DNA from: Massalongia carnosa
Lineage: Eukaryota
Reading direction: 5' to 3'
Assembly (NCBI GenBank): GCA_965645245.1
Contig: OZ287071.1
Location: 1,922,001 to 1,986,000, forward strand
DNA length: 64,000 bases
In this document: piece by piece, positions 4,228 to 57,000 of the stretch
Numbering within the stretch: position 1 is the stretch's first letter
Layout of the letters: each line of letters starts with the position of its first letter
Made by a program: the position numbers and the translations under genes
Notes under the pieces: generated by a model
Told to the model about the DNA's origin: nothing
What the model saw: only the letters and a program-made list of their open reading frames with translations
The model's database searches: none

Positions 4228-6026
4228 TCGAATTTTATCGAATATGTGTTTGGAATTCTTTGATAAATAGGGTTATTTTCTGCAATCTTCAATAATCGAA
4301 TTGCGTATTTTTGATTTTTCATTAATAATCGAAGTTTAACTGGTAAAACATGTGATTCAATTTCCATCGCCTGAACAGGTGTGGTTTTGAAAGTTCCTAA
4401 AATCTTTCGAATGATTTGATTTTCTAGGTTCTGAAATAGTTTTTCATATTTCTTTTGACCATTATACCAAATTTCTGAGCCGTAGTCCGAAATAGGAATA
4501 ATGCATGACATATAGAGCTGTCTGCATGCGGTCGGTTTCAGACCCCATTCGGATTTCATCAAATTCTGAATTGCAAAAAACGATCGATTCGCAGAAGCGA
4601 TCCGCGTTTCGACGTGTTTTTTGAAATTTAGTTTTCGGTCTAACCAGACGCCCAACCATTTGACTACATTTTTCGGTTCTAGTACTGTCCCGTTTGGTAA
4701 TTCCAATGTGTCTTTCGATACATTTCTTGTCTTTTCGAAGTGAATCAGCTCGGATTTATCGTCAACAAATTTGACATTATTCGATACGGCCCAATCAAAG
4801 GCCGTTTCGACTATGATTTCGATTTCTTTGCAATTCTGTTTTGCAGTTATATTTTCGACATATATTGCAACATCGTCAATAAAACTGGGAGAATGTGCAT
4901 TGAATTTCATTCGTATTTTCGGAAACAAGTGACGAATGTAAATCAGAAATAGAATAGGCGAGATTGGTGAGCCTTGTGGAATTCCTGATTTGACATAATA
5001 TGTTTTGCTTAAATTTTCATCAAATATCAATTTGATCGATCGTTTTGTCATGAAATGCTTGACCCATTGAATTATTATGCGAGAAAATTTCAGCTTTTTC
5101 ATAACATTTAGCAGTTGATTAATCGAGACAAAGTCAAATGCGCCTTTGACATCGAGTAATAGACATGATAAGACGTTTTTATTTCTATTTGCAATTTCTA
5201 TATCATGAACAACGTTTATTACTGCGTCAATTGCAGAATGATTTTTGCGTCCGCCCATCTGTTCGATATCGAGTAAATTCGAATTTTCGCCGAAGTAGGC
5301 TAGTCGATTTGCAACGATTTTCTCAGCAATTTTACCAAGACAATTTAGTAATGTGATAATTCGATATGATTTTGGAAACGAATAGTCTGATTTATTAGGT
5401 TTTTTCAGAACTGCACCGAGTCCTGGTCGCCCGCATTACGGGTGATAACCGATTCTAATGAATTTCGAATAAATCATGAAAAACACGTTTTTCAACTATT
5501 GAAACGATTTTTGAACAATTATAAAATTGATTGCATCAGGTCCACATGCTTTCTTTGGATTAAATTAACTAATCGCATTTTTCAACTCGTTTTCGGTCAA
5601 GTCTGGCCAATTATCATCATTTTCGCTGTCTTGATTTGATAATCTTCCTCATTATTGTCAATAAATCGGTTTTTTGTATATATTTCTGACACAAATGCAT
5701 CGCATTTGTCATTAAACTGAACATTTAGCTTGTTTTCATGTAGAATCGGCGGTATTTTTTCGAATATGCGCGGTTTAGTGTATTTATACGCGGTAAATAC
5801 ATCTTTATTTGCTGCATTTTCTAGAAAAGTCAACCATGTTTGTTGTTTTGCTTTTCGAATTGCATGAAAATACTCGATTCGACTATGTTTAAACGTCCGA
5901 TGACTAAAATCGGAGGGATAATTCTTCTATTCTTGACGATGTCTGCACATGGTTTTTCGAAGTTCAGTTAAATCTTGCGACTACCAATTTTTCGATTTTG
6001 CACAAATTTTCGTTTTCGGAATAAAC
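4228..6026 (-). pseudogene. Central ORF2 (RT) fragment of degenerate A-type LINE X
   Basis: RT motifs LLDVKGAFD, QGSPISP and SFIDD with stops and frameshifts. Continues at 14257 after the TSD. Confidence 0.9.
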
Positions 6027-6258
6027 TATTTTTTTTATTTATTCATTAAGTGTATTCAACCTAAGGTTATGACACTAAACTATTTTAAGATATGGTTTTA
6101 TGTTACAAATAAATCAACCCTTTATAACCCAACTATCTATCGTCAATATTGCCCCGTTTTTACTCCGTGTTAGTAACAACCTTTAGTAATCGAAATATCG
6201 ATTTTACAATTTGTTTTTGTAAAGCTCGTAAATATTCCAGCATAAATCATTTCTAATT

Positions 6259-9200
6259 TTACCGTTCGATCTCTCCCCAACCTCCCGTTTCGATATTTTC
6301 GTCATCGAGCTGACCTAGCATCCATTTTCTAGTCGCGATTTTGTTATCAACAATATATTTAATCAAAATATTATTTCCGATCCTAGTATTAAACAACATT
6401 TTTAAAGTAATTGTGGTATCGATATTTTGTTTCATGTTTAGGATTTCATTTGAATAATGTATGCAATTCATCAATAAGTGTTCTGGCGTTTGACGTTCGT
6501 TGCAGCGCCCTGTGCATTTTGACGAATTATAATCTTTCAATCGGTGCAGATATGATCGAAAATAACCGTGTCCGAATTTCATTTGCATAATAGTCGCAAA
6601 TATTAATTTCGAACAATTATTCGACAGATAATAAAAACTCGATTTGCCCGGCTGCATTTCGAATTTCTCATAGTATTTGCCTTTTGACTTGCATTGTTGC
6701 CATTGATTCTCCCATGTGGCTAACATATTTCGATTTATTTGACCCTTTACATAATCAAATGTTATTATCGAAGACTCGACTAGGATTTGACTATGTCCCG
6801 CTTTTGCTGCTTTATCTGCAATTTCATTTTCGACGATTTTCGAATGACTAGGAATCCATTGTAGAACCACCTGATAATTGTTTTCGAATAAGTATTTCGA
6901 GAATTTTCGAATTTGTTTTGCGTAAGTATGATTTGTCAAGTTCTGAATTTCGTTTATCGCGTTTATGCTATCGGAAAAAATCCAAATCGTTTTTTCCAAA
7001 TTGAAGAGAATATTCGCAATTGTCAATTTGTATGCCCATTTTATTGCTTGTAGTATCGCATAGAGTTCAGCGTTTTTAACGCTTGACTGTTTGTTTAATT
7101 TCCAGCTTTTCGAAATCGTATGATGTTTGAGGAGACAATCTTTTTCGATAAAACGATTGAAGTTATCGGTGAAATTGTTCCAATTTCGCATAATTGGTGC
7201 AAATGTGACAGCGGAAGTTGAAAACTCGGTTTTTGATCCATCGGTATAGAGTAACATTCGCGATTTATCGGCGTTTATTGATTGGATTTTTGATAAAGTC
7301 GAATAATAACTTGACTTTGCTGTTTCTTTGGATCTTTCGATTTGGAACTTGATTTTACAAGACGGCTTCCATGGTTTGATGAAATTATTTACTGATTCGA
7401 ATTCATCAGTTTTGTGAACTATATCCGAAACGGAATGAAGAATACGGATAAGCTGACTAGGATGAGGTTTACTCGATTTTTTCTCGTCTTCGTTCCATTC
7501 AGCATATCTGTTGTTCCATAAACTAGTGTCAAAACCGATGTTTTCGAATTTCACAGAATAGGTACTGGGAATTCTTTGACAAATAGGATTATTTTCGGCA
7601 ATCTTCAATAATCGAATTGCGTATTTTTGATTTTTCATCAACAATCGTAGCTTGGCTGGTAAAATATGCGATTCAATTTCCATCGCCTGAACAGGCGTGG
7701 TTTTGAATGTGCCTAAAATCTTTCGAATCATTCGATTTTGCAGATTCTGAAATAGCTTTTCATATTTCTTTTGACCGTTATACCAAATTTCTGAGCCATA
7801 GTCCGAAATAGGAATAATGCATGACAAATAGAGCTGTCTGCATTCAGTTGGCTTTAGTCCCCATTCAGACTTCATAAAATTTTGAATTGCGAAAAACGAT
7901 CGATTTGCAGAAGCAATTCGCGTTTCGACGTGTTTTTGTAATTTAGTTTTCGGTCTAACCAGACTCCTAACCATTTGACAGAATTTTTCGGTTCTAGTAT
8001 TGTCCCGTTTGGTAATTGCACTTTGTCTTTTGATGCATTTCTTGACTTTTCGAAGTGAATCAACTCAGATTTGTCGTCATCAAATTTGACATTATTCGTT
8101 GCGGCCCAATCAAAAGCTGTTTTGACGATAATTTCGATTTCTTTGCAATTCTGTGTGGCAGTTTTATTTTCGACATATATTGCAACATCGTCTATAAAGC
8201 TAGGTGAATGAGCATTGAATTTCATTCGTATTTTCGGAAATAAGTAACGAATATAAATCAGAAATAGAATTGGCGAAATTGGTGAACCTTGTGGAATTCC
8301 AGATTCGATATAGTACGTTTTGCTTTTGTGTTCATCGAATATCAAATTGATCGATCGTTTTGTCATAAAATGCTTGACCCATTGAATAACTATGCGAGAT
8401 AAATGCAGCTTTTTCATGACATTTAGCAATTGATTAATCGAAACAAAGTCAAATGCTCCTTTGACATCGAGTAATAGACATGATAAAACGTTTTTGTTTC
8501 GGTTTGCGATTTCGATATCATGAACGACGTTCATTACCGCATCGATTGCAGAATGATTTTTCCGTCCGCCCATTTGTTCGGTATCTAACAAGCTCGAATT
8601 TTCGCCGAGGTAGGCTAGTCGATTAGCAACTATTTTCTCCGCAATTTTACCAAGACAATTCAGTAAGGTAATAATTCGATATGATTTTGGCAGCGAGTAG
8701 TCTGGTTTATTAGGTTTTTTTAAAACAGCACCGAGTCCTGTTCGCCAACATAACGGGTGAAAACCGATTTGTATAAACTTAGAATAAATAGTAAAAAACA
8801 CGTTTTTCAATGGTTGAATCGATTTTTGAATTATTGTGAAATTGATTGCATCAGGTCCACATGATTTCTTTGGATTAAACAAACTAATCGCATTTTGCAA
8901 TTCATTTTCGGTTAAATTCGGCCAATTGTTGTCATTTTCGTTGTCTTGATTCGTTAAATCTTCAATATTATCATCCGTGAACGGGTTTTTTGTGTACATT
9001 GCTGACACAAACGCATCGCATTTGTGATCGAATTGAACATTTAACTTATTTTCATATTGAATAGGTGGTATTTTTTCGAACATGCGCGGTTTAGTGTATT
9101 TATAAGCTGTAAATACGTCTTTATTCGCTGCGTTTTCGAGGAAAGCCAACCAAGTTTGCTGTTTCGCTTTTCGAATTGCATGAAAGTACTCGATTCGAAT

Positions 9201-10270
9201 ATGTCTAAATGTTTGATGACTAAAATAGGACGGATTATTCTTCCATTCTCGACGATGTCTACACATGATTTTTCGAAGTCCGGATAAATCTTGCGACCAC
9301 CAATTTTTCGATTTTGCGCATATTTTTGTCTTCGGAATAAACATTTCAGCCGCGTTTTTGATAACGTTTTGCAAATATAACGCTGATTCATCAAATTGAT
9401 AATTGTTCAATAGACTTTGTATTTGGGACTCGTAGTTTACTGCATTTTCGTCTAGAAACTTCGCGAATTTATCCCAATCGGCTTTATTGCAGTTGTATTT
9501 ATTCGATAATGCGGTTGCGTGTGACGTCAAGTTCTTGAAAGACGCGATAAGTTCAAATCGAATAACTTCATGATCTGAACCCGTGACTGCGTTTTCATCG
9601 ATTGACCAATTTGTAATTGCGTTTTCGATTTTAGAATTTGCAAATGTTAAATCAATAATATATGAAGAGTTTCCTGAATGAGCAAAAAATGTATATAGAT
9701 CAGGCGTATTTATCAAACTACATTTGTTTAATTTTAACCATTTGACTAGATTTTCTGATCGAATTGCATTTTGAATCTTCGAATTCCACCAGCTATGATG
9801 TGCATTGAAATCTCCACATATGACAAATTGATCAGTTGATATAGGTTGATATTTAACTAAAAGTCGATCGATTGTATATGTTTCTCGATCGTTTAGACTT
9901 TTTTCATTGTAAAGGTTAAAGATCTGCACTTTTCGAACTTCATCAATTGTAATTTCGATAATTTGCAGATCAGTATCGTTTATAAGATCCGTTCTAGGCG
10001 TTCATTGCAATTTTGGATTGCATTTTGTAACGAATATAGCTACTCTCGGCCGATAAGTCGCTATTTTCGGCATAATACATGTGAATGACGGATGGGAAAT
10101 TGTTTTTTGATCTCGCGTCCATGGTTCCTGAAATAAACAATATCAACACGATTTAATACTGCATATTCCAGACACGAAATCATTGCATTCGTTGACTTTG
10201 CACAATTATGTTGAATAAATTTGACATTTTGTGTATTTTCGATATTTGTCAACGAATGTTGTCCCGCCAT
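6259..10270 (-). pseudogene. LINE B1 ORF2 (APE-RT-RNase H-CCHC), disrupted
   Basis: Pieces 10061-10270, 7872-9929 and 6259-7974. 1-nt deletions near 10135 and 7935 and a stop near 10001 relative to B3. Confidence 0.9.
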
Positions 10271-11806
10271 TAACCAAGCATTAATTCATCATTCGATTTT
10301 CTAGGATTTAGCGATATAAACATTTCGCAACCTATATCGTTCGATTGATGATTTTTGTTGCAATTGACGCATTTCAGAATTGCATGTGCGCATGCGATTT
10401 TAGACTTGCATGTTGTGCATTCATGATTATGCGTTTCATGACTTTGTGCGCATATATTGCATTTTGCCGGACTTTTGCATTGATAATGCTTATGTCCAAA
10501 TTTCTGACAATTAATACATTGCGTGTTTGGACGAACGGATGCAAATATTTCCGTGTCACAATGTCTACCCGCGATATTCACGCCTCTTAACGCGTTTGAC
10601 GCTTAATTTTGATTATTGAAAGTCAAAACTACCGACGACGTGACTTTGTTTTGACGATCCCGAGCAAGCCATCTTGGTAAATCGCATAGTTGCATATTCG
10701 AATTGTATTTTTCGATTTCGGTTTGCAAATATTGCATGTTATTATCGAATAACGAGATATTTACTCCGTGTGCTATGACTTTAAACCAGGATTCGTCTTT
10801 TCGAATTCTTTGTGATTCGAAAATGTGTTCCCATGAAGATTTATTTTTCAACAATTCTTCGGCATTGTTGTAAGGGCTAGTGGTGAGATCGATATTCTGA
10901 CCGGTTTTGGACTTTTCAACAGTATTGACGATGATGTTTAAATTTGCGTTTTTTAATAGCGCGTTAATTTCATCACGCAACTTCATAGAGTCGATTTGAG
11001 CGTCAGGATTTTTCGGTGAAATCACGAGTCGTCTGGCCTTGATTGCATCAAATCGATCGACTTTGTTCGAATTATGATTCGAACTTTTTCTTTGAATAGT
11101 AGTCCAATTTTCGGAGTTTTCGGTTGCTTTTCCAAGCATTTGACTCCATGTACCGGTTGTGCTAACATATTTACCAGAGACCCCGGTAGCTCCTTTGCGA
11201 ATGGTCTGATTTTCGATAATTGAATTTTCGTTCAATTTAACAACAGGTTTTTGGATTTTTGGACCATTCTGTAGTGGAGTCGTTTGTTGTTGTGACGTTT
11301 TTGAGGAAAGATGACTAGTTTGATCAAGTACTATGCCCATTTTATAGTTAATCATATCTAAGGATGTTTGTAAATTGATTGATTTTTTCGAAATCAACGA
11401 ATTAACGTTGTCAATTACGATAGCCGTTTGTGGATTTTGGTCCAGTACAAATGATTGCAATAATAATTTTGGCCGACTTTAGAAGCTCAATTGAATTTGC
11501 CCGATTGATCGCTTCTTGGCTATCTCTCGAATGTTCGTCAAATGTGCGTCTTTTATTTCGTTTGATTGGTGGGCTTGATCCAATGTTTAAGTTCAATGAA
11601 GGCATCGGCAAGATAGTGGAAAATGGACCCGATGGGAATTTCGTTGCCTTTGGTGTCGGTGTTGACGGGGCTGATGCATATTCGCGAGTTTGATCCATAG
11701 GTTCAAGACGGGGAGAGCTCCCTATCAACGCCACCGGAGATGGTCCGGGCGAGTGTCCGGGGGGGGCCGGGTAAGGGGTCGATAGGGGGGCGGGACTGGC
11801 TGGGGG
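10270..11806 (-). pseudogene. LINE B1 ORF1, 5'-truncated and disrupted
   Basis: Matches 58078-59606. Stop at 10603, frameshift near 11465. First ~15 codons and 5'UTR are replaced by passenger sequence at 11806/11807. Confidence 0.88.
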
Positions 11807-12607
11807 CTAAGAATGATAAAATTGAGTTGACATCTCTCTCCTTCGTGAAGTCTCTATCCCAGTTTTCGTTCATCTCACTGGTGCGTTTTACGGCCCAAGA
11901 TTATTGATGAATTCTACGATTGGGGTGAACGACGTCCCTTTCGCCCAGGTCAAACCCAGTTTACTCCTTAAGCATATATCAAGGGCGAGTCTAGCCGTAG
12001 CCCATGCGCCGGCGAACCGACGGGGTCTCGTTACGAGCGAGATAGACATTCCCTGCTCTATATACACCGACATGCGCATACTGTCCTCTCGGGCTATGCA
12101 GACGGTCTCCGTACGGTGGCCGCCATTGCATACCACGCCTCACGGGTTTTTTACGCCCACTTCGCGTTATTCATAAAGGTCTCCCGTTTATGAACCGACC
12201 ATGTCTCGCAGGGATTTCGATCACTATGCTCCTGACCAGGCAGTATAGTATCGATTTTCCGTCCCTACTAACCAAAACGAGTCGAGGACAACTCGGAGGG
12301 GTGCTCGTTTGAAATTCGTCTATTAGCTCAGGGCCTAGACTGTTATCAATTAACGGGTTCCTCGTATATTGCCCTCTTCTTGTCCCAAGGGTGTCCTATT
12401 TGATGACTAGGTTGCCTCCACCATCCCCGGTACGACTCCGGTTCGGGCCGTGTTGCTCACGGTAGCCATCAATCGGATGGTTTTCATAACCCAAATCCCT
12501 TGTATCGTGTAGGGTGTGACCCTACACTATGTGTCTATATGTTTTATTTCTTTCAGCCGGAGGGCTCCGTGTTGTAGACGAAGGAGACCCGTGTGACAGA
12601 CATAGCT

Positions 12608-13160
12608 CGGACACGGCTATTTTCGATCTTATTTACAGCGATTGAAAGATTATAATTCGTCAAAATGCACAAATCGATGCAATCAACGACAAACGCCAGA
12701 ACACTTATTATTGAATTGCATTCACTATTTCGATGAAATTCGAAACATGAAACAAAATATCGATACTACCATCAACTTGAATATGTTGTTTAATACAAAA
12801 ATCGGAAATGAAATTTTGATTAAATTCATTGTCAATAACAAAATCGCGACAAGAAAATGGATACTAGGTCAGCTTGATGACGAGATTTTCGAAACTGGAG
12901 GTTGGGGAGAGATCGAACAGTAAAATCAGAAACGATTTATGCTGAAACATTCACGAACTTACAAAGACAAATTTTAAAATCGATATTCTTCGATTACTAT
13001 AGGTTGTTACTAACACGGAGTAAAAATGGGGAAAAATTGACAATACATAGATGGGTTATAAAGGGTTGATTTATTTGTAATATAGAAACATATCCTAAAA
13101 TAGTTTAGTGTCATAACCTTAGGTTGAATACACTTAATGAATAAATAAAAAAATAAAAAA
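12608..13160 (+). mobile_element. 5'-truncated A-type LINE 3' fragment nested in the passenger
   Basis: ORF2 C-terminus (...GGWGEIEQ), 3'UTR and A tail. TSD ACAGACATAGCT at 12596-12607 and 13161-13172. Empty site in copy 2 near 63612-63625. Confidence 0.93.
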
Positions 13161-13174
13161 ACAGACATAGCTGA

Positions 13175-14007
13175 CCCGTGTCGTACGTCTTTAGCTCTCA
13201 GCCGATGACTGCATGAAAGGACTTGAACCTTTAAGAGTATGACTGAACGTTGTTAACGAGGTCTATGAAAATCTTATTAACGAGGTCTTCGAGAACAATA
13301 TTAACGAAGTTCCGCTGAACTATTTTCATTCGTTTTGTGATCCATCGAGGTCTACCCGTGTCAAATCCACACCATGCCCGTGTCAAAATGCATCATTTTC
13401 AGCTGATGACTGCTAGAAAGGACTTGAACCTCTAAAAATATGTACGCCGATATTAACGGGGTGCAGATCTGTCTTAACGAGCCCCCGCAGAACCCTCTTC
13501 ACAGGGACGTGTTATTGATTTGTGATTGTGTTTTTTGTGACTGTGTGTTTTGTGACTGTGTGTTTTGTGACTGTGTGTTTTGTGACTGTGTGTTTTGTGA
13601 CTGTGTGTTTTTTGACTGTGTGTTTGTGACTGTATGTTTGTGACTGTGTGCTTTGTAACTGTGTGCTTTGTACAACGTGTGATTGATGACTATGTGTTTT
13701 GTGACTCTGTGTTTTCCTCGATTTTATTTAACGGGCCGGGCCTATTAAATGGGATATTGTTATTCTGCTCCGAGATGGAGTTTTCTTGAGGTGACAGCAT
13801 TCGCCCCGGTGCCTTTACGCGTTCTGTTGATCCCAGCTGATGACTGCATGGGGAGACTTGAACTCTCAGGAGCTAGAACGCGTGTCGATTGTGCCCGGGT
13901 GGGGGATGATGCGGCTCCTTTGGTCCACATCTTCTTCCAGCTGATGACTGCATGAAGGGACTTGAACCCTTAGAAGCATGGTGCAGGGACGCGCGCATTC
14001 TACCCCC
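13175..14007 (-). ncRNA. Putative structured RNA domain: four T-loop modules on long stalks
   Basis: Cores at 13195-13237, 13395-13439, 13831-13871 and 13934-13976. Covarying stems around an invariant ACTTGAA (minus strand TTCAAGT) loop. Confidence 0.6.
13521..13668 (+). repeat. 15-bp minisatellite (TGTGACTGTGTGTTT), ~10 units
   Basis: Direct inspection; ~6 degenerate units at 63173-63264 in copy 2. Confidence 0.9.
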
Positions 14008-14153
14008 CGGCGGTTGGCCTTCGTATCCTCTTCCGTACGTACGTCTGCGACGCGTGTGAACGCGTTAAATTAGCATTGTTTTGATGCGAAAAGATAGGAG
14101 CAAATCTATGTTTGTCAGTCGCTCCACGGTGAGGCCTTTGGCGTCTCCGTAGT

Positions 14154-14256
14154 GAGGACCGATAGTGTAGAAGGAGGAGGACCGATGGTGTAGAAGGAGG
14201 AGGACCGATATATAATAATGTGATAGTAAATATGATAGTAAATGTGATAGTAAATG
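14154..14256 (+). repeat. 23-bp tandem repeat (~2.4 units) followed by 12-bp tandem repeat TRTGATAGTAAA x3
   Basis: GAGGACCGATRGTGTAGAAGGAG units at 14154-14209; 12-mers at 14219-14254. Confidence 0.9.
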
Positions 14257-16239
14257 TTTCGGAATAAACATTTCAGCAACGTTTTTGATAACGTTTTGCA
14301 AATATATCGCTGATTCGTCGAATTGATTATTATTCAAAAAACTATGAACTTGTGATTCGTAGATGGTTGAATTTTTGTCTAGATACTTCGCGAATTTATT
14401 CCAATCGGCTTTATTGCAATTTTATTTATTCGATAATGCGGTTGCATGTGACGTCGAATCTTTGAAAGATGCGATTAGTTCAAATCGGATGACTTCATGA
14501 TCAAAACCTGTGACTGCGTTTTCATCGATTGACCAATTTGAAATTGCATTTTCGATTTTAGAATTTGCAAAAGTTAAATCAATAACAGATAAAGAACTTC
14601 CAGAATGGGCGTAGTATGTACATAAGTCAGGTGTGTTTATCAAGCTACACCTGTTTAATTTCAACCATTTGACAAGATTTTCTGTTCGAATTGCTTGTTG
14701 AATTTTCGAATTCCACCAGTTATGATGTGCATTGAAATCTCCACAGATGACGAATTGATCAGTTGATTTTGGTTGTAATTGGATTAAAAGTCGATCGATC
14801 GTGTATGTTTCTCGATGACTTTGACTTTTTTCGTTATAAATATTGAAAATCTTCACTTTTCGAACTTCATCAAGTGTAATTTCAATAATTTGCATATCGG
14901 AATCGTCAATAAGATCCGTTCTAGGCGTGCATTGCAGTTTGGAATTGCCATTTGTGACAAATATAGCTACTCTCGAGCGATAAGTCGCTATTTTTGGCAT
15001 AATACATGTAAATGACGGATGTGATATTGTTTTTTGATCTCGTGTCCATGGTTCCTGAAACAAAACAATATCAATTTGATTTGATAAAGCATATTCCAAA
15101 CACGATATCATTGCATTCGTTGACTTTGCACAATTATGTTGAATAAATTTAACATTTTGTGTATTTTCGATGTTTGTCAACGAATGCTGTCCTGCCATTA
15201 CAAAGCGGCTAATTCGTCAGTCGATTTTCGAACATTTAACGATATAACCATTTCACAATTTTCATCATTGGATTGATGATTCTTGTTGCAATTCGCGCAT
15301 TTGACGACGGCGTGTGCACAAGCAATTTTTGACTTGCATGTTGTGCATTCATGATTGCGTGTTTCATGGTTTTGCGCACATATGCTGCATTTCGCTTGAC
15401 TTTTGCATTGATAATGCTTGTGTCCAAATTTTTGACAATTAATGCATTGTGTGTTTAGACGAACGGAGGTAAATATTTCCGTGTCACAATGTCGGCCCGC
15501 GATATTGACTCCTTTTAACGCGTTCAAGGCCATATTTCGATCATTGAATGTCAAAACAACGGATGATTTGATCTTGTTATGACGATCACGTGCTAGCCAT
15601 CTGGGAACATCGCATAATTGCATGTTCGAATTGAACTTTTGAATTTCGTCTTGCAAATATTGCATGTTTTCATCAAATGTTGCAATATTTACACCGTGTG
15701 CGACGACTTTGAACCACGATTCGTCCTTTCGAACTGTTCGTGGGTCGAATAAATGCTCCCATATTGATTTATTGTTCAATAAATCTTCAGCAGTGTTATC
15801 AGGACTAGTAGTCAGAACGATGTTTTGACCCGTTTTGGACTTTTCGACCGTGTTAACAACGATAGTCAATTTCGCGTCTTTAAAAAGCGAATTGATTTGG
15901 TTTCGAAGCAACAGTGAATCGATATCGCCGATTTGAGCTTTCGGTGTGATTATCAATCGTCGAGATTTGATCGCCTTGAAATCGTCAGTATTATCGAATT
16001 TGTTCGCATTCGAATTATTGTTGTTGTACTTGTTTGTTTTTTTGGATCGAGGAACGGTAGTCCAATTTTCGGAATTGACAGTCGCTTTTCCGAGCATTTG
16101 GCTCCATGTTCTAGCTGTATCGTTGACCTGCGGCCCTGGGACTCCGGCGGTTTCGCTCCGAATTTCTGGGTTGACGTTTTTAGTCAAATTCGAATTTCCA
16201 TTTGAATTTCCCTTGGATTTTTTCTGTATAGGATGCACC
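14257..16239 (-). pseudogene. 5' portion of LINE X (ORF2 APE domain and ORF1 C-terminal ~345 aa), cut at the inversion junction
   Basis: ORFs 14422-15198 and 15198-16247 match A1. Resumes exactly at the TSD. Confidence 0.9.
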
Positions 16240-25500: not shown

Positions 25501-26612
25501 TGTTTTGATTTTCGAATTGCATGAAAATACTCGATTCGACTATGTTTAAACTTTCGATGACTAAAATCGGACGGATAATTCTTCCATTCTCGACGATGTC
25601 TGCACATGGTTTTTCGAAGTTCAGTTAAATCTTTCGACCACCAATTTTTCGATTTTGCACAAATTTTCGTTTTCGGAATAAACATTTCAGCCGCGTTTTT
25701 GATAACGTTTTGCAAATATATCGCTGATTCGTCGAATTGATGATTATTCAATAAACTTTGAACTTGTGATTCGTAGATGGTTGAATTTTCGTCTAGATAC
25801 TTCGCGAATTTATTCCAATCAGCTTTATTGCAATTGTATTTATTCGATAATGCGGTTGCATGTGACGTCAAGTTTTTGAAAGATGCGATTAGTTCAAATC
25901 GGATGACTTCATGATCAGAACCTGTGACTGCGTTTTCATCGATTGACCAATTTGTAATTGCATTTTCGATTTTAGAATTTGCAAAAGTTAAATCAATAAC
26001 AGATGAAGAACTTCCAGAATGGGCGTAGTATGTACATAAGTCAGGTGTGTTTATCAAGCTACACCTGTTTAATTTCAACCATTTGACAAGATTTTCTGAT
26101 CGAATTGCTTGTTGAATTTTCGAATTCCACCAGTTATGATGTGCATTGAAATCTCCACAGATGACGAATTGATCAGTTGATTTTGGTTGTAATTGGATTA
26201 AAAGTCGATCGATCGTGTATGTTTCTCGATGACTTTGACTTTTTTCGTTATAAATATTGAAAATCTGCACTTTTCGAACTTCATAAATTGTAATTTCAAT
26301 AATTTGCATATCGGAATCGTCAATAAGATCCGTTCTAGGCGTGCATTGCAGTTTGGAATTGCCATTTGTGACAAATATAGCTACTCTCGAGCGATAAGTC
26401 GCTATTTTTGGCATAATACATGTAAATGAGGGATTTGATATTGTTTTTTGATCTCGTGTCCATGGTTCCTGAAACAAAACAATATCAATTTGATTTGATA
26501 AAGCATATTCCAAACACGATATCATTGCATTCGTTGACTTTGCACAATTATGTTGAATAAATTTAACATTTTGTGTATTTTCGATGTTTGTCAACGAATC
26601 CTGTCCTGCCAT
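22600..26612 (-). pseudogene. A2 ORF2 (APE-RT-RNase H-CCHC) with one premature TAG and a terminal 1-nt deletion
   Basis: 925-aa ORF stops at 23835 (TGG>TAG). RNase H motifs YTDGS, AEL, FSDS and QWVPSH follow. 4013 nt versus 4014 nt in B3. Confidence 0.9.
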
Positions 26613-46881: not shown

Positions 46882-48036
46882 ATGAACACACGAGGACGAA
46901 GCGGCCAGAATTCGGCCAATCCCACGTCCAATCAGGGTGATGACCTACTGGACTACGATACGCTGAAACAAACACCACTAAACCAGCTAATCGACGAGAT
47001 TAGAGCCATGCAGGCCCATTTGACCGAACAGACAGCAGCCATGCAGGCCCAGGCCACCTTGTTGACTCAGCAAAGTACCCGTCTCGCTGCCAATGAAAGG
47101 GAATTAGAACGACTGCACGAGGAAAGAGAGTCTCGTCGTCCTCGCTCCATGGAACGATCTGTCAGGTATAACCTCAAAGTTAAGTCGCCCGACCCGTATT
47201 ATGGCAAGGACCATAAGACCTTGTTCGAATTCACCAGACAATGCGAGGCTGTCTTTAACACTAGTGGCATGCCTGAAACGGAACAAGATCGTCGTATAGC
47301 CTATGCAGGTAGCTACCTTCGAGACTCCCCTAGCGACAATTGGCATGAGATACTATCACGAGGGGGTCATCTGAATCTTACCTGGAAGGAGTTCAAAAAG
47401 AACCTCATGAATCAACTAGGCTCTACAGAAGTTTTCAAAGATCGAACCTGGATGCAGTACCATCATGCGCAACAACGTCCCAATGATACTGTTCAATCCT
47501 TTGCGGCCTACTTACAACGCCTACGAACAATATTAGCCGATGCAGATCCGGAACATCCTATTACCGAAGAACAGATGGTCCAGAAGCTTCGTACGGGAGT
47601 CATACCAATAATTCGGAATTCCTTAGCACTAGGTCATCGACATCCCGCTACCATAGCGGAATTCATCAGTGATGCACAACTAGCTGAGGGAGCGGCTGTT
47701 TTGCCATCATCAACAGGTAGAGGCTACTCCAAGCGGGAGCAAGGTGCCCCGGTTTCTAACGATCAGGGCCGCCGAGAACCATATCCAACTAATCATCGCG
47801 GAGGTCGAGGCGGAAGAGGTCATCGAGGTAGTCACCACGGAAGAGGCAATAGAGGCGGAAGAGGCCGAGGCGGCAGGAATGCGGCTCCGGCTGGTACTAG
47901 CGCGCCGTCGACCAATAGCAATGCCATTCCGCTAGGCACTGTGACCGAGATACAAGACAATAACAAAAATAGCTGCTATAATTGTGGATCCCTCGAACAT
48001 TGGGTAAAAGACTGTCCCCATCCAAAAAAAGCATAG
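46882..48036 (+). CDS. gag: Gag (retrotransposon capsid domain, RGG region, CCHC knuckle)
   Basis: 384-aa ORF with PDPYYG motif, RGGRGGRG and CYNCGSLEHWVKDC. Confidence 0.92.
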   Translation: MNTRGRSGQNSANPTSNQGDDLLDYDTLKQTPLNQLIDEIRAMQAHLTEQTAAMQAQATLLTQQSTRLAANERELERLHEERESRRPRSMERSVRYNLKVKSPDPYYGKDHKTLFEFTRQCEAVFNTSGMPETEQDRRIAYAGSYLRDSPSDNWHEILSRGGHLNLTWKEFKKNLMNQLGSTEVFKDRTWMQYHHAQQRPNDTVQSFAAYLQRLRTILADADPEHPITEEQMVQKLRTGVIPIIRNSLALGHRHPATIAEFISDAQLAEGAAVLPSSTGRGYSKREQGAPVSNDQGRREPYPTNHRGGRGGRGHRGSHHGRGNRGGRGRGGRNAAPAGTSAPSTNSNAIPLGTVTEIQDNNKNSCYNCGSLEHWVKDCPHPKKA

Positions 48037-51000
48037 TCGCCGCTGCTGCCTCACTACCGGCGACTACTATCAAAGAGGCATCGGCAAGTCCTAAGACATT
48101 GGAAGTCGCACCCTGCATAGAGTACGAAATAACACACGCTAAAGAAACAGCAAAAGTACTAATTGACAGCGGAAGTGAAGTTAACCTTATTTCTAGAGCT
48201 TACGCAAATATGGGCGCTCTGACAGTGTTACACTCCAGCGTCAGTTTGGAAGCTATTAATCACCAGCAAGTCATGACACATGGCATGGGTCTGTTGGTGT
48301 TCGGGGTAACTGATCAATTAGGTCAGTAACGTTTCTTTGAGGAAACATTCCTAATAGCAGATATACCTCATAATATCGTGTTGGGCATGCCATTCCTGCA
48401 GCTAGCCAATCCCGATATCGATTGGTCAGCAAGGACCCTGAATTGGCGAGAACTAAGCGTTCAATCGGCCCTGATGACTACTCATCGGATAGAGATTATA
48501 GAACCAGAAGTCTTCATAGAAGAGGCGTTATCAGAAGATACACCGACCTACGTGGTCCATGCTAAGGCGCTAGGTGTAGATAACATCCATTCGAGCCGTC
48601 GAGCTAGAATAGCCTCAGTGAAGGTACAAGAAATCAAGGTCCCTGAGGCTTATATGTAATGGGCTACGAGACCAGTAAGCTTATCACGAGCGACACTGAT
48701 CTCGAAAGGGGAAATGCTCAGCGTGAGAGGAGGAAGATAGCTACTACGTGCTAGTCTCCGAGAGTATACGTGATCCAAAGAACTAAAGGATGTGGAAGTG
48801 CTTAGACCAAGAGATCTCGTCCGAGACCCAAACGTAGGTTGTTCATAGAATAAAGACTAATTGCTAACGAATACTACAAGATTCGTTCTGATATTTATCC
48901 TACTCACCCCAAGCCTATAGCCTTGGGAGCCTTGGAACCTTAGGAGCCTTGCAAGCCTTGGGAGTCTTGCGAGCATTACAGCCTTGCAATCCACATCCGA
49001 CTTTATCGCATTACATCCAACCATCCCTCAGGATCCATCCACGAACTCGGCGTTCGCTGGATCATCTAGTCAGCCTCGAGCAGCCTTCTAGACCTTCCCT
49101 TGCAAGGTAGAACAATTCTACCCCCGGCTAGATCCCTCACTACATGCCTCAGGCTATGTAGCTTCATTTCGCCGTCACCACTACCTAGTGATGGAAGGTT
49201 ACCTCCGACTGAATACCTCGCTACACTGCGGACCTGCCTCTAAACACAAGGTCTAGACAACGAGGTCATGTAGGTTCATTCAGCCGACATCACTACCAAC
49301 GTAGTAATAAAGGTTGAAGCTGAAGTTTACACCGGGGAGCCTAGCTCAAGCTGCGTCCAGCGAGCCGTGCCTCCTGCTACCTCTCTTGAACCTTCAAGAG
49401 ATCCAGTAGCTCCGAGTAGGCCAGTAGATCCCATATAGAGTTCCTTGGCGTCTCCACAGGAGTCCGCCTTACACTCCATGGCAATCTACTACCACGGCCT
49501 CGACAGGTGTTTGATCTGTAAGTAGTCAAGAACGTGATAACAATAACTCCGAAGTTTCGGGGCAAGATGGCAGTGTGTCAGCCTCGACGGCTTATGCGAC
49601 TTTGTCCTACGGCATGGTCCACGCTAGTTAATCCCGCAACCGCCATAGGCGAGCACGTATCCCTCTAGCGCCATCCGTATTACATTATAAGGATTTCGCA
49701 GATGTCTTTTCGGAAGATAGTGCAGCCGAGCTACCAGAGCACGGGCTACATGATCATGCGATCGACCTCGTGGATGGAAAGCAGCCTCCATATGGACCTA
49801 TTTATAGCCTATCAGAAACAGAGCTTACAGTGCTAAGGGCCTACCTCGATGCTCACCTGGCTAATGGGTTTATCCGGCCATCTACCTCACCAGCTGGAGC
49901 TCCTATTCTCTTCGTGCCTAAGGCAAATGGTACCCTGAGGCTCTGCGTGGATTATAGGGGTCTGAACAATCTGATAGTTAAAAATCGCTACCCGCTACCA
50001 TTAGTAGGCGAGTCTTTAGATCGACTAGGACGGGCCAAACAGTACACCTAATTGGATTTGACTGCAGCCTATAATCGCATCAGAATTAAGAAAGGCGACG
50101 AATGGAAGACAGCCTTTCGCACCCGATATGGCCATTTCGAATACTGCGTCATGCCGTTCGGATTATCCAATGCTCCGGCCTCCTTCCAAGCCTATATCAA
50201 TAAAGCGTTGGCACTAAAACTGGATGTCTTCTGCATCGTTTATTTGGATGATATACTGATCTATACCGAACAGAAGGGTAAGGCCCATGAAGATGCTGTG
50301 CGATGGGTGTTAGAACAACTCCGCAAGCATGGCTTATTTTGCAACTTACAAAAATGCCGATTCAGCACCGACGAAGTCGAATTCCTAGGCTATGTCATCA
50401 ATCCTAAGGGTGTTTATATGCGAAAAGATCGCATCCAAGCAGTGCAAAATTGGCCACGGCCCACATGCGTACGCGATGTACAGGTTTTCATAGGCTTCGC
50501 GAATTTCTATAGACGATTCATTCGTGGGTTCAGTAAAATAGCAGGGCCACTTACCGCTATGCTGAAAACAAAGCCCGCTAATCATAGACAGAAACCACCT
50601 AAGGGTGTCGAAAGCGAGTTCCTTACGGAGGAAGCTCTAGAGGCTTTTGAGAAGCTGAAAAAGTCGTTCATAGAGGCCCCGGTACTAAGGCATTACGATG
50701 CTAGTAAACCAGTACGCGTGGAAACCGATGCGTCAGGTTATGCTATTGGCGGCATATTGGCTCAGCAAGATGACGAGAGACAATGGCACCCTGTTGCCTA
50801 TTACTCACGCAAGATGCTACCGGCTGAGCGTAATTACGAGACCCATGATGCTGAACTATTAGCGATAGTCGAGGCCTTCAAAATTTGGAGACATTACCTT
50901 GAGGGGTCGTCTCACGAAATTCTCGTGTTGACTGATCACAATAACCTTACGAGGTTTATAGATACCAAGCGCCTAAGCGGCAGGCAAGTAAGGTGGGCTC

Positions 51001-52950
51001 AAGAGCTTTCCAGGTATAATTTCCGCATCGATTATCGTCAGGGTAAGAGGAACCCAGCCGATGGGCTGTCAAGACCTCCTACCGCTGGCGATGATGATGG
51101 CGAAGTGCTGGTTGAAAACCGCAAAACGCTCTACCTTTTGCAGACATCCCTAGCAGATAAGAACGCACGCGTTTGTCTAATGAGGGCAATGTCAGGGGAG
51201 TCGTTAGATGATGCTTCTGGCCCGACGGGGTCTCACCACGGTGAAATATGGAAGATCATAACATGCGGAACATTGGTTGTTCCGAAGGTGAAGGCATACT
51301 GGAGTTCATTGCGAAGCTCTCTCGTACAGCACGAGTCACCTTATACTCAACCCGCTTCTAGGGGAGTATTAGAGCGTCTTCCTGAGTTGCAACAGGTTGA
51401 CGAGGTCGCTATCACTGTTCGGAAAAGGTTAGCTACCTTGAAAGACAGTGACGTGTCGGGGACACAGGAGGTGGCGCCCTCCAGCGAGCCATGGGCGGAC
51501 TCGGACCACTGTCTATTCCATGAAGGAAAGAAAGGCCTACATCCCAGCCTCCTTACGGGGAGAAATTCTTGAGTTAAATCATGATGATCCGCTGGCAGGG
51601 CACTTCGGGAAAGACAAGACGATTGAGCTAGTGAGTAGAAAGTAATACTGGCCATCGATGAAGTCAGACATAGCACGCTATGTAGAGGGTTGCGACGTCT
51701 GCATGAGTAGCAAAGCTACGAGGCATAAGCCTTATGGAAACTTGCAGTCGTTGCCTATACCAACTCATAAGTGGAAGGACATTACGATGGACTTCGTCAC
51801 TGGCTTACCTAAGAGTAAGGACTGGAGGGGAGTTGATTATGACTCTATCCTAGTCGTCGTTGATAGGCTCACCAAGATGGTGTACTATGAGGCAGTGAAG
51901 AAAACGCTGACTGCTGAACAGTTAGCTGAAGTGCCAAGGCACTGAGTGTTCAAGTATCACGGCCTACCTGACTCCATAGTCACCGATCGGGGCTCGCTAT
52001 TTACATCAAACTTCTGGTCATCCCTATGCTATTACATGAAGATAAAGCGTAGGCTAAGCACAGCCTTCCATCCACAAACAGACGGTCAGACAGAACGTCA
52101 AAATAGTACCATGGAAGCTTACCTTAGGTCTTACTGCCGTTTCGAGCAAGATGACTGGGTGCAATGGCTCCCTACCGCTGAATTTGCATACAATAACACC
52201 CGTCATTCAAGTACCAAGCTCACCCCGTTCGAGGCTAATATGGGCTACCACCCAAGGATGAGTTATAAAGATAACCAAGACCCTCGATCGAAGTCTAAGA
52301 CAGCTGAGGAACAGGCTAAAAATCTATGCGATTTGTTAGCAGAGTTGAAAAATAACCTGCAATTAGCCCAAGACAATCAAGCCAAATATCACAATAGAAC
52401 GGTGAAAGAACGTTGCTACGCTCCCGATGATATGGTTTGGCTAAACAGCAAACTTATTAAGACGAAAAGGAACAAGAAGCTTGAGCATAAGTTCTTGGGT
52501 CCCTTTAAGGTGTTGAGGCCTGTAGGCACTCAAGCTTACGAGCTAGAACTTCCGAAAAGTTAGAAAATACACCCAGTCTTTCATGTGTCTATGCTGGAAA
52601 GAGACACCACCAGAAGGGAGGTAGTAGACGAACAAATGGCTGAACAGCTTGAATTCGTAGACGATGACATGCAAGAGTATGAAGTAGAGTGCATACGAGA
52701 TAGTGCAGTCTATGCAAAAGAAGCAGAAGACGGACGACCGGCTGGATTATATTATCTAGTGCATTGGAAAGGTTATCCCGACGCGGAAGACACATGGGAG
52801 CCCGTCGCCGGCGTCAAACATCTACGAAAGCTATTGAGGGAATTTCATGAGAAAAATCCTACCAAGCCAACAGCAAAGTCCACCCCTCAGGCCACTAGGA
52901 CTCCCTTATTAGCGAAAGAAACAGGACGACGCACAAAGAGGACTAAATAA
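48024..52950 (+). pseudogene. pol: Pol (protease, RT, RNase H, integrase, chromodomain), disrupted
   Basis: LIDSGS; YLDD; ETDAS and ELLAIV; HDDPLAGH...CDVC; TMDFV, SIVTDRG and GQTER; YLVHWKGY...TWEP. Stops at ~48327, 50049, 51643, 51943 and 52561, a frameshift near 51525, and a solo-LTR insertion. Confidence 0.93.
48655..49684. mobile_element. 1030-bp probable solo LTR of an unrelated family, nested in pol
   Basis: TGTAAT...ATTACA termini, TSD TTATA (48650-48654 and 49685-49689). Removal restores the pol reading [10 protein letters not shown]. Confidence 0.85.
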
Positions 52951-53756: not shown

Positions 53757-54064
53757 CTAGGATTCGACTATGTCCCGCTTTTGCTGCTTTATCTACAATT
53801 TCATTTTCGAAGATTTTCGAATGACTAGGAATCCATTTTTTTAATTATTCATTAAGTGTATTCAACCTAAGGTTATGACACTAAACTATTTTAAGATATG
53901 GTTTTATTTTACAAATAAATCAACCCTTTATAACCCAACTATCTATCGTCAATATTGCCCCGTTTTTACTCCGTGTTAGTAACAACCTTTAGTAATCGAA
54001 ATATCGATTTTACAATTTGTTTTTGTAAAGCTCGTAAATATTCCAGCATAAATCATTTCTAATT

Positions 54065-57000
54065 TTACTGTTCGATCTCTCCCCAACCTCCCGTTTCGAT
54101 ATTTTCGTCATCGAGCTGACCTACCATCCATTTTCTAGTCGCGATTTTGTTATCAACAATAAATTTAATCAAAATATTATTTCCGATCCTAGTATTAAAC
54201 AACATTTTTAAAGTAATTGTGGTATCGATATTTTGTTTCATGTTTAGGATTTCATTTGAATAATGTATGCAATTCATCAATAAGTGTTCTGGCGTTTGAC
54301 GTTCGTTGCAGCGCCCTGTGCATTTTGACGAATTATAATCTTTCAATCGGTGCAGATATGATCGAAAATAACCGTGTCCGAATTTCATTTGCATAATAGT
54401 CGCAAATATTAATTTCGAACAATTATTCGACAGATAATAAAAACTCGATTTGCCCGGCTGCATTTCGAATTTCTCATAGTATTTGCCTTTTGACTTGCAT
54501 TGTTGCCATTGATTCGCCCATGTGGCTAACATATTTCGATTTATTTGACCCTTTACATAATCAAATGTTATTATCGAAGACTCGACTAGGATTCGATTAT
54601 GTCCCGCTTTTACTGCTTTATCTGCAATTTCATTTTCGACGATTTTCTAATGACTAGGAATCCATTGTAGGACCACCTGATAATTGTTTCCGAATAAGCA
54701 TTTCGAGAATTTTCGAATTTGTTTTGCGTAAGTATGATTTGTCAAGTTCTGAATTTCGTTTATCGCGTTTATGCTATCGGAAAAAATCCAAATCGTTTTT
54801 TCCAAATTGAAGAGAATATTCGGAATTGTCAATTTGTATGCCCATTTTATTGCTTGTAGTATCGCATACAGTTCAGCGTTTTTAACGCTTGACTGTTTGT
54901 TTAATTTCCAGCTTTTCGAAATCGTATGATGTTTGAGGAGACAATCTTTTTCGATAAAACGATTGAAGTTATCGGTGAAATTGTTCCAATTCCGCATAAT
55001 TGATGCAAATGTGACAGCGGAAGTTGAAAACTCGGTTTTTGATCCATCGGTATAGAGTAACATTCGCGATTTATCGGCGTTTATTGATTGGATTTTTGAT
55101 AAAGTCGAATAATAACTTGACTTTGCTGTTTCTTTGGATCTTTCGATTTGGAACTTGATTTTACAAGACGGCGTCCATGGTTTGATGAAATTATTTACTG
55201 ATTCGAATTCATCAGTTTTGTGAACTATATTCGAAACGGAATGAAGAATACGGATAAGCTGACTAGGATGAGGTTTACTCGATTTTTTCTCGTCTTCGTT
55301 CCATTCAGCATATCTGTTGTTCCATAAACTAGTGTCAAAACCGATGTTTTCGAATTTCACAGAATAGGTACTGGGAATTCTTTGACAAATAGGATTATTT
55401 TCGGCAATCTTCAATAATCGAACTGCGTATTTTTGATTTTTCATCAACAATCGTAGCTTGGCTGGTAAAATATGCGATTCTATTTCCATCGCCTGAACAG
55501 GAGTGGTTTTGAATGTGCCTAAAATCTTTCGAATCATTCGATTTTGCAGATTCTGAAATAGCTTTTCATATGTCTTTTGACCGTTATACCAGATTTCTGA
55601 GCCAAATTCCGAAATAGGAATAATACATGACAGATAGAGCTGTCTGCATGCAGTTGGCTTTAGTCCCCATTCAGACTTCATCAAACTTTGAATTGCGAAA
55701 AACGATCGATTTGCAGAAGCAATTCGCGTTTCGACGTGTTTTTTGTAATTTAGTTTTCGGTCTAACCAGACTCCTAACCATTTGACAGAATTTTTCGGTT
55801 CTAGTATTGTCCCGTTTGGTAATTGCACTTTGTCTTTTGATGCATTTCTTGACTTTTCGAAGTGAATCAACTCAGATTTGTCGTCATCGAATTTGACATT
55901 ATTCGTTGCGGCCCAATCAAAAGCTGTTTTGACGATAATTTCGATTTCTTTGCAATTCTGTGTGGCAGTTTTATTTTCGACATATATAGCAACATCGTCA
56001 ATAAAGCTAGGTGATTGAGCATTGAATTTCATTCGTATTTTCGGAAATAAGTAACGAATATAAATCAGAAATAGAATTGGCGAAATAGGTGAACCTTGTG
56101 GAATTCCAGATTCGATATAGTACGTTTTGCTTTTGTGTTCATCGAATATCAAATTGATCGATCGTTTTGTCATAAAATGCTTGACCCATTGAATAACTAT
56201 GCGAGATAAATGCAGCTTTTTCATAATATTTAGCAATTGATTAATCGAAACAAAGTCAAATGCTCCTTTGACATCGAGTAATAGACATGATAAAACGTTT
56301 TTGTTTCGGTTTGCGATTTCGATATCATGAACGACGTTCATTACCGCATCGATTGCAGAATGATTTTTCCGTCCGCCCATTTGTTCGGTATCTAACAAGC
56401 TCGAATTTTCGCCGAGGTAGGCTAGTCGATTAGCAACTATTTTCTCCGCAATTTTACCAAGACAATTCAGTAAGGTAATAATTCGATATGATTTTGGCAG
56501 CGAGTAGTCTGGTTTATTAGGTTTTTTTAAAACAGCACCGAGTCCTGTTAGCCAACATAACGGTTGATAACCGATTTGTAAAAACTTAGAATAAATAGTA
56601 AAAAACACGTTTTTCAATGGTTGAAACGATTTTTGAATTATTGTGAAATTGATTGCATCAGGTCCACATGATTTCTTTGGATTAAACAAACTAATCGCAT
56701 TTTGCAATTCATTTTCGGTTAAATTCGGCCAATTGTTGTCATATTCGCTGTCTTGATTCGTTAAATCTTCAATATTATCATCAGTGAACGGGTTTTTTGT
56801 GTACATTGCTGACACAAACGTATCGCATTTGTGATCGAATTGAACATTTAACTTATTTTCATATTGAATAGGTGGTATTTTTTCGAACATGCGCGGTTTA
56901 GTGTATTTATAAGCTGTAAATACGTCTTTATTCGCTGCGTTTTCGAGGAAAGCCAACCAAGTTTGCTGTTTCGCTTTTCGAATTGCATGAAAGTACTCGA

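Follow-up and report, generated by a model that had tools for sequence, protein, structure and literature searches.

LINE retrocopies that carry a conserved, folded non-coding RNA sequence at their 5′ end

Why should a stretch of non-coding DNA carry long stalks of regularly spaced, pairing motifs? In Massalongia carnosa (assembly GCA_965645245.1, contig OZ287071.1), a stretch of 64,000 nucleotides (nt; forward-strand positions 1,922,001 to 1,986,000, referred to here as the window and counted from its first letter) contains such stalks at 12445-13737. An earlier note, made from the sequence itself, described them as G-U-rich helices with a periodic CGUUAA/ACACG internal motif, assigned them to RNA of the minus strand, and took them for repeated protein-binding internal loops of a multivalent ribonucleoprotein (RNP) scaffold. 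Here, we describe what the stalks belong to. Their periodic motifs are the rungs of irregular hairpins, and the stalks are part of a non-coding unit of ~2.4 kb, which we call X and which self-comparison finds in two copies in the window. The RNA sequence of X is non-coding, folded and conserved, and it is carried into genomes at the front of retrocopies of a long interspersed nuclear element (LINE). The earlier note missed that the element belongs to a LINE chimera, that the stalks are topped by a conserved three-way junction, and that the strongest structure lies outside 12445-13737, at 11821-12276.

The two copies of X, and the chimera to which copy 1 belongs, are laid out as follows.

6027-14256, minus strand: chimera of X and LINE, one insertion with a 13-bp target-site duplication.
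6014-6026, no strand: left target-site duplication TTTCGGAATAAAC, 13 bp.
6027-11806, minus strand: LINE part of the chimera, 5′-truncated within the N-terminal coding part of open reading frame 1 (ORF1), with an A-rich tail at 6027-6045.
11807-14256, minus strand: X copy 1, RNA sense minus, with its 3′ end at 11807 and its 5′ end at 14256; the edge at 11807-11812 is common to three related loci introduced below (L001, L004 and L007).
14257-14269, no strand: right target-site duplication TTTCGGAATAAAC, 13 bp.
62534-64000, plus strand: X copy 2, inverted relative to copy 1, RNA sense plus, extending past the end of the window.

The 13-bp duplication encloses both X and the LINE, and the LINE ends in an A-rich tail, meaning that the two were inserted as one piece. 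This duplication is seen in the one chimera that has both of its ends inside the window. On either side, 5200-6031 and 14257-14450 come from neighboring stretches of a single LINE ORF2 and overlap by TTTCGGAATAAAC, and the uninterrupted target, with TTTCGGAATAAAC present once, occurs at 25671-25687 and near 693. At the junction (11806/11807), X is joined directly to a LINE on the same strand, and the frame from 11806 reads the N-terminus of ORF1. The LINE of the chimera is 98.4% identical to the LINE at 53836-58808, part of the element 53836-59616; 11401-11806 matches 59209-59616, and that element continues into a different, native 5′ untranslated region (UTR) of ~1.1 kb. Since X and the LINE were retrotranscribed as one unit, with an A-rich tail and a target duplication, the minus strand is the RNA strand of copy 1, which is the strand that the earlier note had chosen. 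Two other origins of the junction were considered and rejected. LINEs inserting site-specifically beside X would not account for a target duplication that surrounds X and LINE jointly, and splicing from a fixed donor fails because the native LINE has CA, not AG, ahead of the position of the junction in the window.

X is non-coding. Copy 1 (11807-14256) has no ORF longer than 100 amino acids, and 1-nt insertions and deletions inside the best-conserved blocks mean that no reading frame is maintained. A small RNA-sense ORF (...NHPIDGY...LVIK*) was rejected as a candidate because 1-nt indels between relatives break it.

Relatives of X were found by scanning metagenome contigs with the module core described below. 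This yielded seven loci (designated L001 and so on), which are 59-75% identical to X over region A, the structured core at its 3′ end, and which carry one to three modules each. In all four loci that show the 3′ end of X together with what lies downstream (the window, L001, L004 and L007), that end is identical, reading ...TTCTTAG or ...TTCTTGG, and the LINE fragment that follows is on the same strand and starts at different points. In the window, this start is in the N-terminus of ORF1; in L001 and L007 it is close to ORF2 residues 721-723, and in L004 it is ~100 nt further upstream. In L005, a minus-strand fragment of an ORF1 zinc knuckle directly adjoins X, although the match is weak (E 0.007). 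The fixed 3′ end, the varied truncation of the LINE, and the one target-site duplication together indicate that X reached the genome as an RNA copied by the LINE machinery. The junction very probably arose by template switching, the LINE reverse transcriptase (RT) leaving LINE RNA and resuming synthesis at the 3′ end of X RNA. Template switching is the mechanism proposed for MINE chimeras, in which the non-coding sequence WEIRD is joined to the MGL LINE (PMC2104539).

The internal features of X are as follows. Those that concern copy 1 are given first.

11821-12276, minus strand: region A, the structured 3′ core, with 119 predicted pairs.
12553-12607, minus strand: module-1 stalk, 3′ side; it bears three ACACGG rungs (CCGTGT on the plus strand at 12567 and 12589, the third at 13176).
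12608-13161, plus strand: nested LINE 3′ end, 5′-truncated, with an A-rich tail; it matches ten other LINE 3′ ends at 87-99%.
13167-13277, minus strand: module 1, class I, comprising P1, P2, P3 and the innermost rung; 91.5 bits; further CGUUAA rungs are TTAACG at 13277 and 13301.
13368-13478, minus strand: module 2, class I; 88.2 bits; two rungs per side (TTAACG at 13453 and 13474, CCGTGT at 13356 and 13378).
13519-13715, no strand: microsatellite separating modules 2 and 3, made up in copy 1 of 13.2 units of the 15-nt sequence TTTGTGACTGTGTGT.
13802-13912, minus strand: module 3, class II, without CGUUAA/ACACGG rungs, sitting on ACGCGUUCU/AGAACGCGU; 72.5 bits.
13906-14016, minus strand: module 4, class II, from pattern and alignment; unlisted by the covariance-model search.
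14154-14257, no strand: a 23-mer in 2.5 copies and a 12-mer in 3.4 copies, each in tandem, at the 5′ end of X copy 1.
62828-62938, 62932-63042, 63306-63416 and 63507-63617, plus strand: the modules of copy 2, within X copy 2.

Read along the minus strand, copy 1 thus begins with short tandem repeats, followed by modules 4 and 3, the 15-nt microsatellite, and modules 2 and 1 on their stalks; after module 1 come ~250 nt of further conserved hairpins, the ~450-nt core, and a 14-nt tail that ends at 11807. The stalks at 12445-13737 are interrupted, as the earlier note had seen, by the unrelated 5′-truncated LINE tail at 12608-13161. This nested insertion has its own 11-bp target duplication, CAGACATAGCT, at 12597-12607 and 13162-13172, and is not in copy 2. 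The 15-nt repeat TTTGTGACTGTGTGT is 58 nt shorter in copy 2 (63140-63260), and none was seen in the relatives; the 23-mer repeat, by contrast, has more copies in copy 2 than in copy 1.

Each element carries one to four modules, and the 23 module instances available align almost without gaps. The elements of the module were taken from RNAalifold with manual extension, and its pairing was compared with a control in which partners were slid out of register. A module consists of a rung (CNCGU/ACGNG), a 3-bp mini-helix, a closing helix of ~10 bp (P1), and two hairpins: P2, a 5-bp stem with the loop UUCAAGU, and P3, a short hairpin with the sequence CAGU-CAUCA-GCUG. Across the alignment, 80.5% of cells are paired, compared with 36-46% for slid partners, and 111 cells are changed on both sides, compared with 21-46; the covariation score was reached by none of 500 shuffles. 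The best supported element is P2, with 95.7% of cells paired, four of its five pairs changed on both sides, and its loop present in 22 of the 23 modules. The third rung pair varies between C-G (10), U-A (4), U-G (3) and unpaired (6) among the 23. Class-II modules, which have no rungs, are modules 3 and 4 plus three from relatives. For the 13 class-I units, loose patterns find equal numbers of rung motifs on both sides of the module in 10 cases, or in 11 if one TGAACG is ignored; the exceptions are L005 (0:1) and L006 (3:2). The rung-and-stalk architecture that the earlier note described is present again in distant relatives, where the third rung pair covaries and rung numbers match across the module.

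A covariance model built from the module alignment (R1) matches only inside X within the 64-kb window. It lists six of the eight window modules, both copies of module 4 being unlisted, and adds one module in L005 that the pattern had missed. The same model gives 82.8 bits to a solitary class-II module at L002:1551-1661 (plus strand), which has neither region A nor a LINE nearby and lies ~450 nt upstream of an ORF in the same orientation that looks, by eye, like a cupin-type protein. Two further structural candidates were rejected. A plus-strand sarcin-ricin motif (AGUA/GAA) fits the internal loop of the relatives, but the modules of the window and of L006 lose AGUA; these modules keep a Watson-Crick mini-helix through changes from U-A to C-G. 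In L007, the apparent linking helices CUGG/CCAG and GCUUAG/CUAAGC are not nested and hence were judged by eye to be repeat units rather than helices.

The 3′ core is the more strongly structured part of X. Seven sequences predict 119 pairs, and 96% of cells are paired, compared with 36-48% for slid partners; 47 of the 119 pairs are changed on both sides, compared with 5-12. The core also shows a strand asymmetry, with 124 G-U and 18 A-C cells among those that are not Watson-Crick, and with consensus folding energies of −120.4 kcal/mol on the RNA strand and −83.9 kcal/mol on the opposite strand. This large core ends 14 nt before the exact 3′ end of X.

The motif positions given by the earlier note are exact on the plus strand, both for TTAACG (13253, 13277, 13301, 13453, 13474 and 13728) and for CCGTGT (12448, 12567, 12589, 13176, 13356 and 13378), and all of its pairings are found in the sequence. 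Minimum-free-energy folds of the module-1 and module-2 domains on the minus strand contain the nested rungs as well as the 12-bp helix CAGAUCUGCACC/GGUGUGGAUUUG, with its three G-U pairs. Window-wide, TTAACG is not enriched (41 observed, 47.6 expected); its six copies on one strand are clustered within 481 nt, and the cluster recurs on the minus strand of the inverted copy (63305-63531). CCGTGT occurs 48 times compared with 14.7 expected, a number reached by none of 100 shuffles, largely because LINE copies carry CCGTGT too. LINE RNA itself contains ACACGG, the 3′ rung word of X, at 12611-12616 and 13013-13018 of the window and in the LINE copies; one such ACACGG is in the 3′ UTR, ~150 nt ahead of the tail.

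How large is the family to which X belongs? In one public sequencing run (X1), 1160 contigs align to 736 nt of X, and most of the positions at which copy 2 differs from those contigs are private to copy 2. Together, these results indicate that the X family is large and that copy 2 is a decaying member of it. Copy 2 lacks 194 nt that are present in the family and carries private, pair-breaking changes. Over 63265-64000, copy 2 has A/T where the family contigs of run X1 have G/C at 14 of 29 listed positions. Several of the changes in copy 2 are TG to TA within module cores (e.g., CTGATGA to CTAATGA), resembling repeat-induced point mutation. In prokaryotic genomes, a relaxed core pattern gave 49 matches, approximately the chance expectation for 17 fixed bases, and none of the 49 had the full core with a paired P2.

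Several observations weigh against reading X as a folded RNA of the LINE cycle, or limit how far that reading can be taken. First, the comparative sample is small: only seven relatives were found, some of them closely related to each other, and the breakpoints of L001, L004 and L007 lie within ~100 nt, so that these three may descend from one ancestral chimera. No solo X was seen, among only five loci that show the 3′ side. The window copies differ upstream of the 23-mer repeats, so that any 5′ end assigned to X is provisional. Second, the core structure, with its 119 pairs, was predicted on the same seven-sequence alignment that was used to count the changes. Third, P3 is the weakest element of the module, with three invariant pairs and one pair swapped from C-G to G-C in 2 of 23 modules. 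Fourth, the strand asymmetry of the modules is modest (61 G-U, 33 A-C); a single invariant U-G in P3 contributes 19 of those 61 G-U and a single rung pair another 10, P1 by itself has 13 G-U and 15 A-C, and the consensus folding energy is −10.3 kcal/mol on the RNA strand compared with −9.5 on the opposite strand. Fifth, folding energies of single sequences, expressed as z-scores against dinucleotide shuffles, are unremarkable. For the core, z is −0.09 when the RNA strand is folded and −1.58 for its complement; module domains range from −1.47 to +0.35, their RNA strands scoring −0.23, −0.49, −1.04 and +0.01; and the values for copy 2 are −0.28 and −0.85. Lastly, the window copies differ at 27 module positions, of which 8 are in paired columns; 5 of these break a pair and none is compensated.

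The earlier note had offered folding energy and the distribution of substitutions as checks on its stalks, and each divides. Module domains and core fold no better than shuffles, and only a 395-nt stretch of copy 1 is weakly better (z −2.29, 3 of 150 shuffles; −0.35 on the opposite strand). Substitutions between the two window copies are random with respect to the proposed pairs, whereas those across relatives are clearly non-random. With the energy check failing and the substitutions within the window yielding nothing, it is the distant relatives that carry the argument for structure.

What, then, is X for? We consider it probable that X is a structured non-coding RNA leader that is switched onto LINE complementary DNA (cDNA), its modules and core being conserved to keep X in the LINE particle. 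In the proposed sequence of events, a LINE RT engaged in copying LINE RNA would jump to the 3′ end of X RNA and continue on that template. Modules and core together would retain X in the LINE particle, most simply if the modules are repeated putative sites for a LINE-encoded protein, and the core would present the 3′ end of X. Candidate binders are the zinc-knuckle protein of ORF1 and the RT of ORF2. X may in turn supply 5′-truncated LINEs with a new transcribed leader. That the modules and rungs are binding sites of a LINE protein is our guess; the multivalent RNP scaffold with protein-binding internal loops, as put forward in the earlier note, is plausible and likewise putative.

A bolder form of this proposal would make X a family of large structured RNAs, widespread among ascomycete fungi and hitherto undescribed, that is an active parasite of LINEs. 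T-arm junctions would hold the LINE RT in the manner of the CR4/5 domain and the telomerase protein TERT, the 3′ core would be a landing site for template switching, X would be copied onto the fronts of LINE cDNAs as a new leader, and WEIRD would be a member. This larger picture strikes us as rather improbable. If it were true, WEIRD would finally gain a function. Three WEIRD/MINE primers (PMC3978060) have no match at up to five mismatches, which is a weak test of homology.

A different explanation places the function of X at the level of DNA. X would be a portable internal promoter, its modules being enhancer or promoter units in which the words CAGCTG, TGACTGCA and GGTTCAAGTCC are factor sites. 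This would explain why X is always at the 5′ end of the chimera and why the number of modules varies from 1 to 4 between relatives. Some of the invariant words can be read in double-stranded DNA, e.g., CAGCTG, which is E-box-like, and GGTTCAAGTCC, which is B-box-like. Folding energies no better than shuffles also fit. On the other hand, factor sites predict neither the compensation in P1, P2, the rungs and 47 core pairs, nor an excess of G-U over A-C on one strand, nor the agreement in rung number across a module, and X contains no A box: of five window matches to TRGCNNAGTGG with at most one mismatch, none is in X. The promoter and RNA-structure readings are not mutually exclusive; as an explanation of X, a promoter is unlikely.

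Could X instead be a host housekeeping RNA, abundant in the nucleus and passively caught by the LINE enzyme, with a structure unrelated to retrotransposition? Structure conserved at 59-75% sequence identity, and a fixed 3′ end like that of U6 in U6-L1 chimeras, are what such an RNA would show. The authors who described WEIRD put forward this hypothesis for it themselves (PMC2104539). Set against it are the results for known RNA families and for copy number. Rfam, with its models of HDV-like, hammerhead and other ribozymes, RNase P/MRP and telomerase RNAs, gave no match at the gathering score in the whole window; a cutoff relaxed to E up to 10 brought only three hits in 11500-14500, all at the level of chance, and six relatives gave none at E up to 1. 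Every X with a visible 3′ end is fused to a LINE (four of four, plus L005), X has a very high copy number in run X1, and its copies differ both in module number and in their tandem repeats, an unusual trait in a housekeeping RNA. We therefore regard a captured housekeeping RNA as distinctly unlikely.

A further possibility is that the modules or the 3′ core are a processing signal, either a self-cleaving ribozyme or a tRNA-like substrate of RNase P or RNase Z, that generates the fixed 3′ end of X. The end is exact and the core stops 14 nt before it, some LINEs carry 5′ ribozymes, and P2 has the sequence and shape of a transfer RNA (tRNA) T-arm; with a 5-bp stem and a 7-nt UUCRANN loop, it is indistinguishable from one by sequence. 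Its surroundings are not those of a tRNA mimic. P2 is the first hairpin past the 5′ strand of P1, and on its other flank 4 nt and P3 intervene before the 3′ strand of P1 is reached, so the arrangement is the reverse of the acceptor/T-arm stack of a tRNA. ARAGORN found no tRNA gene or cloverleaf in the window, no ribozyme or tRNA-like family of Rfam matches even at E up to 10, and internal modules remain uncut in the copies. A processing signal thus seems very unlikely. Two specific identities were rejected by eye: a hammerhead ribozyme, since the plus-strand CUGAUGA lies within a hairpin loop and is followed by 6 nt unable to form stem II, and a C/D-box small nucleolar RNA, since a downstream CUGA is found in module 1 only. 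In the paper texts searched, the 14-nt core word had no match, and GGTTCAAGTCCCT appeared, in the available parts of those texts, in other contexts only. We take these contexts to be mostly tRNA-derived primers.

Lastly, X might have no function. Its periodicity would then go back to a 22-24-nt unit duplicated in tandem as part of a decaying repeat, and the pairings would be accidental. This idea can draw on the 24-nt repeat that Tandem Repeats Finder reports at 13253-13307, on energies no better than shuffles, and on window copies without compensation. It is hardly credible, given that seven metagenome loci, at 59-75% identity, have the same motifs in the same order around the same junction and show compensatory changes.

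The surroundings of X are themselves largely repetitive. The 64-kb window, whose source is probably a fungus and whose sequence is found in, among others, a public run labeled "lichen metagenome", is AT-rich, with 31-40% G+C along most of its length, and consists almost entirely of nested copies of one LINE type, whose ORF1 has zinc-knuckle-like Cys/His motifs and whose ORF2 has endonuclease, RT and RNase H domains. At 46882-52563, ORFs for gag (with a zinc knuckle), RT/RNase H and integrase resemble, as judged by eye, a long terminal repeat element of Ty3 type; this stretch is richer in G+C (0.45-0.51) than the LINE copies (~33%). An inverted duplication, 4796-9731 / 22364-16240, is 99.9% identical over 3422 + 1531 bases, and X copy 1 lies within its unduplicated center. 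Because the arms contain the 3′ part of the LINE of the chimera and the left target flank, the duplication is younger than the insertion of the chimera. Between the 23-mers of copy 2 and a 5′-truncated LINE, the 160 nt at 62374-62533 have no match elsewhere in the window and differ from the 12-mer repeats at the equivalent place in copy 1. They are candidates for the actual 5′ start of X, for a third component within the chimera, or for flanking sequence.

Chimeras of non-coding RNA and LINE have been known from one fungus since 2005-2007, and WEIRD was described without relatives or a known function. Relatives of X at 59-75% identity keep more than 140 base pairs (27 in modules and 119 in the core), many of them through compensatory changes, which indicates that a passenger sequence is under selection for its RNA fold. 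What X does for the LINE, or takes from it, can now be tested, as can the idea that template switching by RT is steered by the acceptor RNA rather than accidental. The modules and the core are seeds for two RNA family models, with which repeat annotators could recognize chimeras that would otherwise be filed as unknown repeats.

X can be compared with several known systems. The promoter monomers of the mouse L1 5′ UTR are also repeated units of variable number at the 5′ end of a LINE; the units of X differ in being separate hairpin domains with compensatory changes, not head-to-tail repeats. With the T-arm of tRNA, and with the heads of tRNA-derived short interspersed nuclear elements (SINEs), X shares P2, a 5-bp stem closed by an invariant G-C pair and bearing the loop UUCAAGU. 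This loop matches the consensus of T-loops, and the B box has the identical word. Unlike these sequences, X has no cloverleaf and no A box, its P2 does not adjoin the 3′ strand of the closing helix, and it contains T runs, which would stop RNA polymerase III. In telomerase RNA, the CR4/5 three-way junction (P5/P6/P6.1) binds the RT TERT. The X module has the same order of closing helix, longer hairpin and 4-bp hairpin with a 5-nt loop, and its putative partner would likewise be an RT; this is a likeness of shape only, with no likeness of sequence, and X has several copies per RNA. The U6-L1 chimeric pseudogenes of mammals are attributed to template switching. Like the X chimera, they join the intact 3′ end of an RNA to a 5′-truncated LINE, with one target duplication around the whole. 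U6, however, is a 107-nt housekeeping RNA with genes of its own, whereas X is long, occurs in many copies, matches no Rfam family, and has been seen in chimeras only.

MINE is reportedly also the subject of work by Fudal et al. in 2005. In the MINE report (PMC2104539), full-length, non-coding WEIRD is fused to a 5′-truncated MGL LINE in Magnaporthe, the whole flanked by direct repeats of 10-20 bp; WEIRD is expressed and is described there as having no solo copies and no relatives in other genomes, with no structure reported. MINE and X agree in having a non-coding leader of at least ~1 kb at the 5′ end, complete at its own 3′ end and fused directly, in the same orientation, to LINEs truncated at different points. 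Both have direct repeats around the whole chimera (10-20 bp for MINE, 13 bp for X). Among the five loci that show the 3′ side, no X has been seen without a LINE, a possible parallel to the lack of solo WEIRD copies. They differ in that X, at ~2.4 kb, is about twice as long as WEIRD (1.1 kb), and in that X has relatives in seven metagenome loci and a fold supported by covariation. X is set beside WEIRD here by architecture, the sequences having been compared only through three primers. The architecture of the chimera is already known from MINE; new are the relatives from several sources, the covariation-supported fold, and its form, a repeated T-arm three-way junction on rung stalks together with a large 3′ core.

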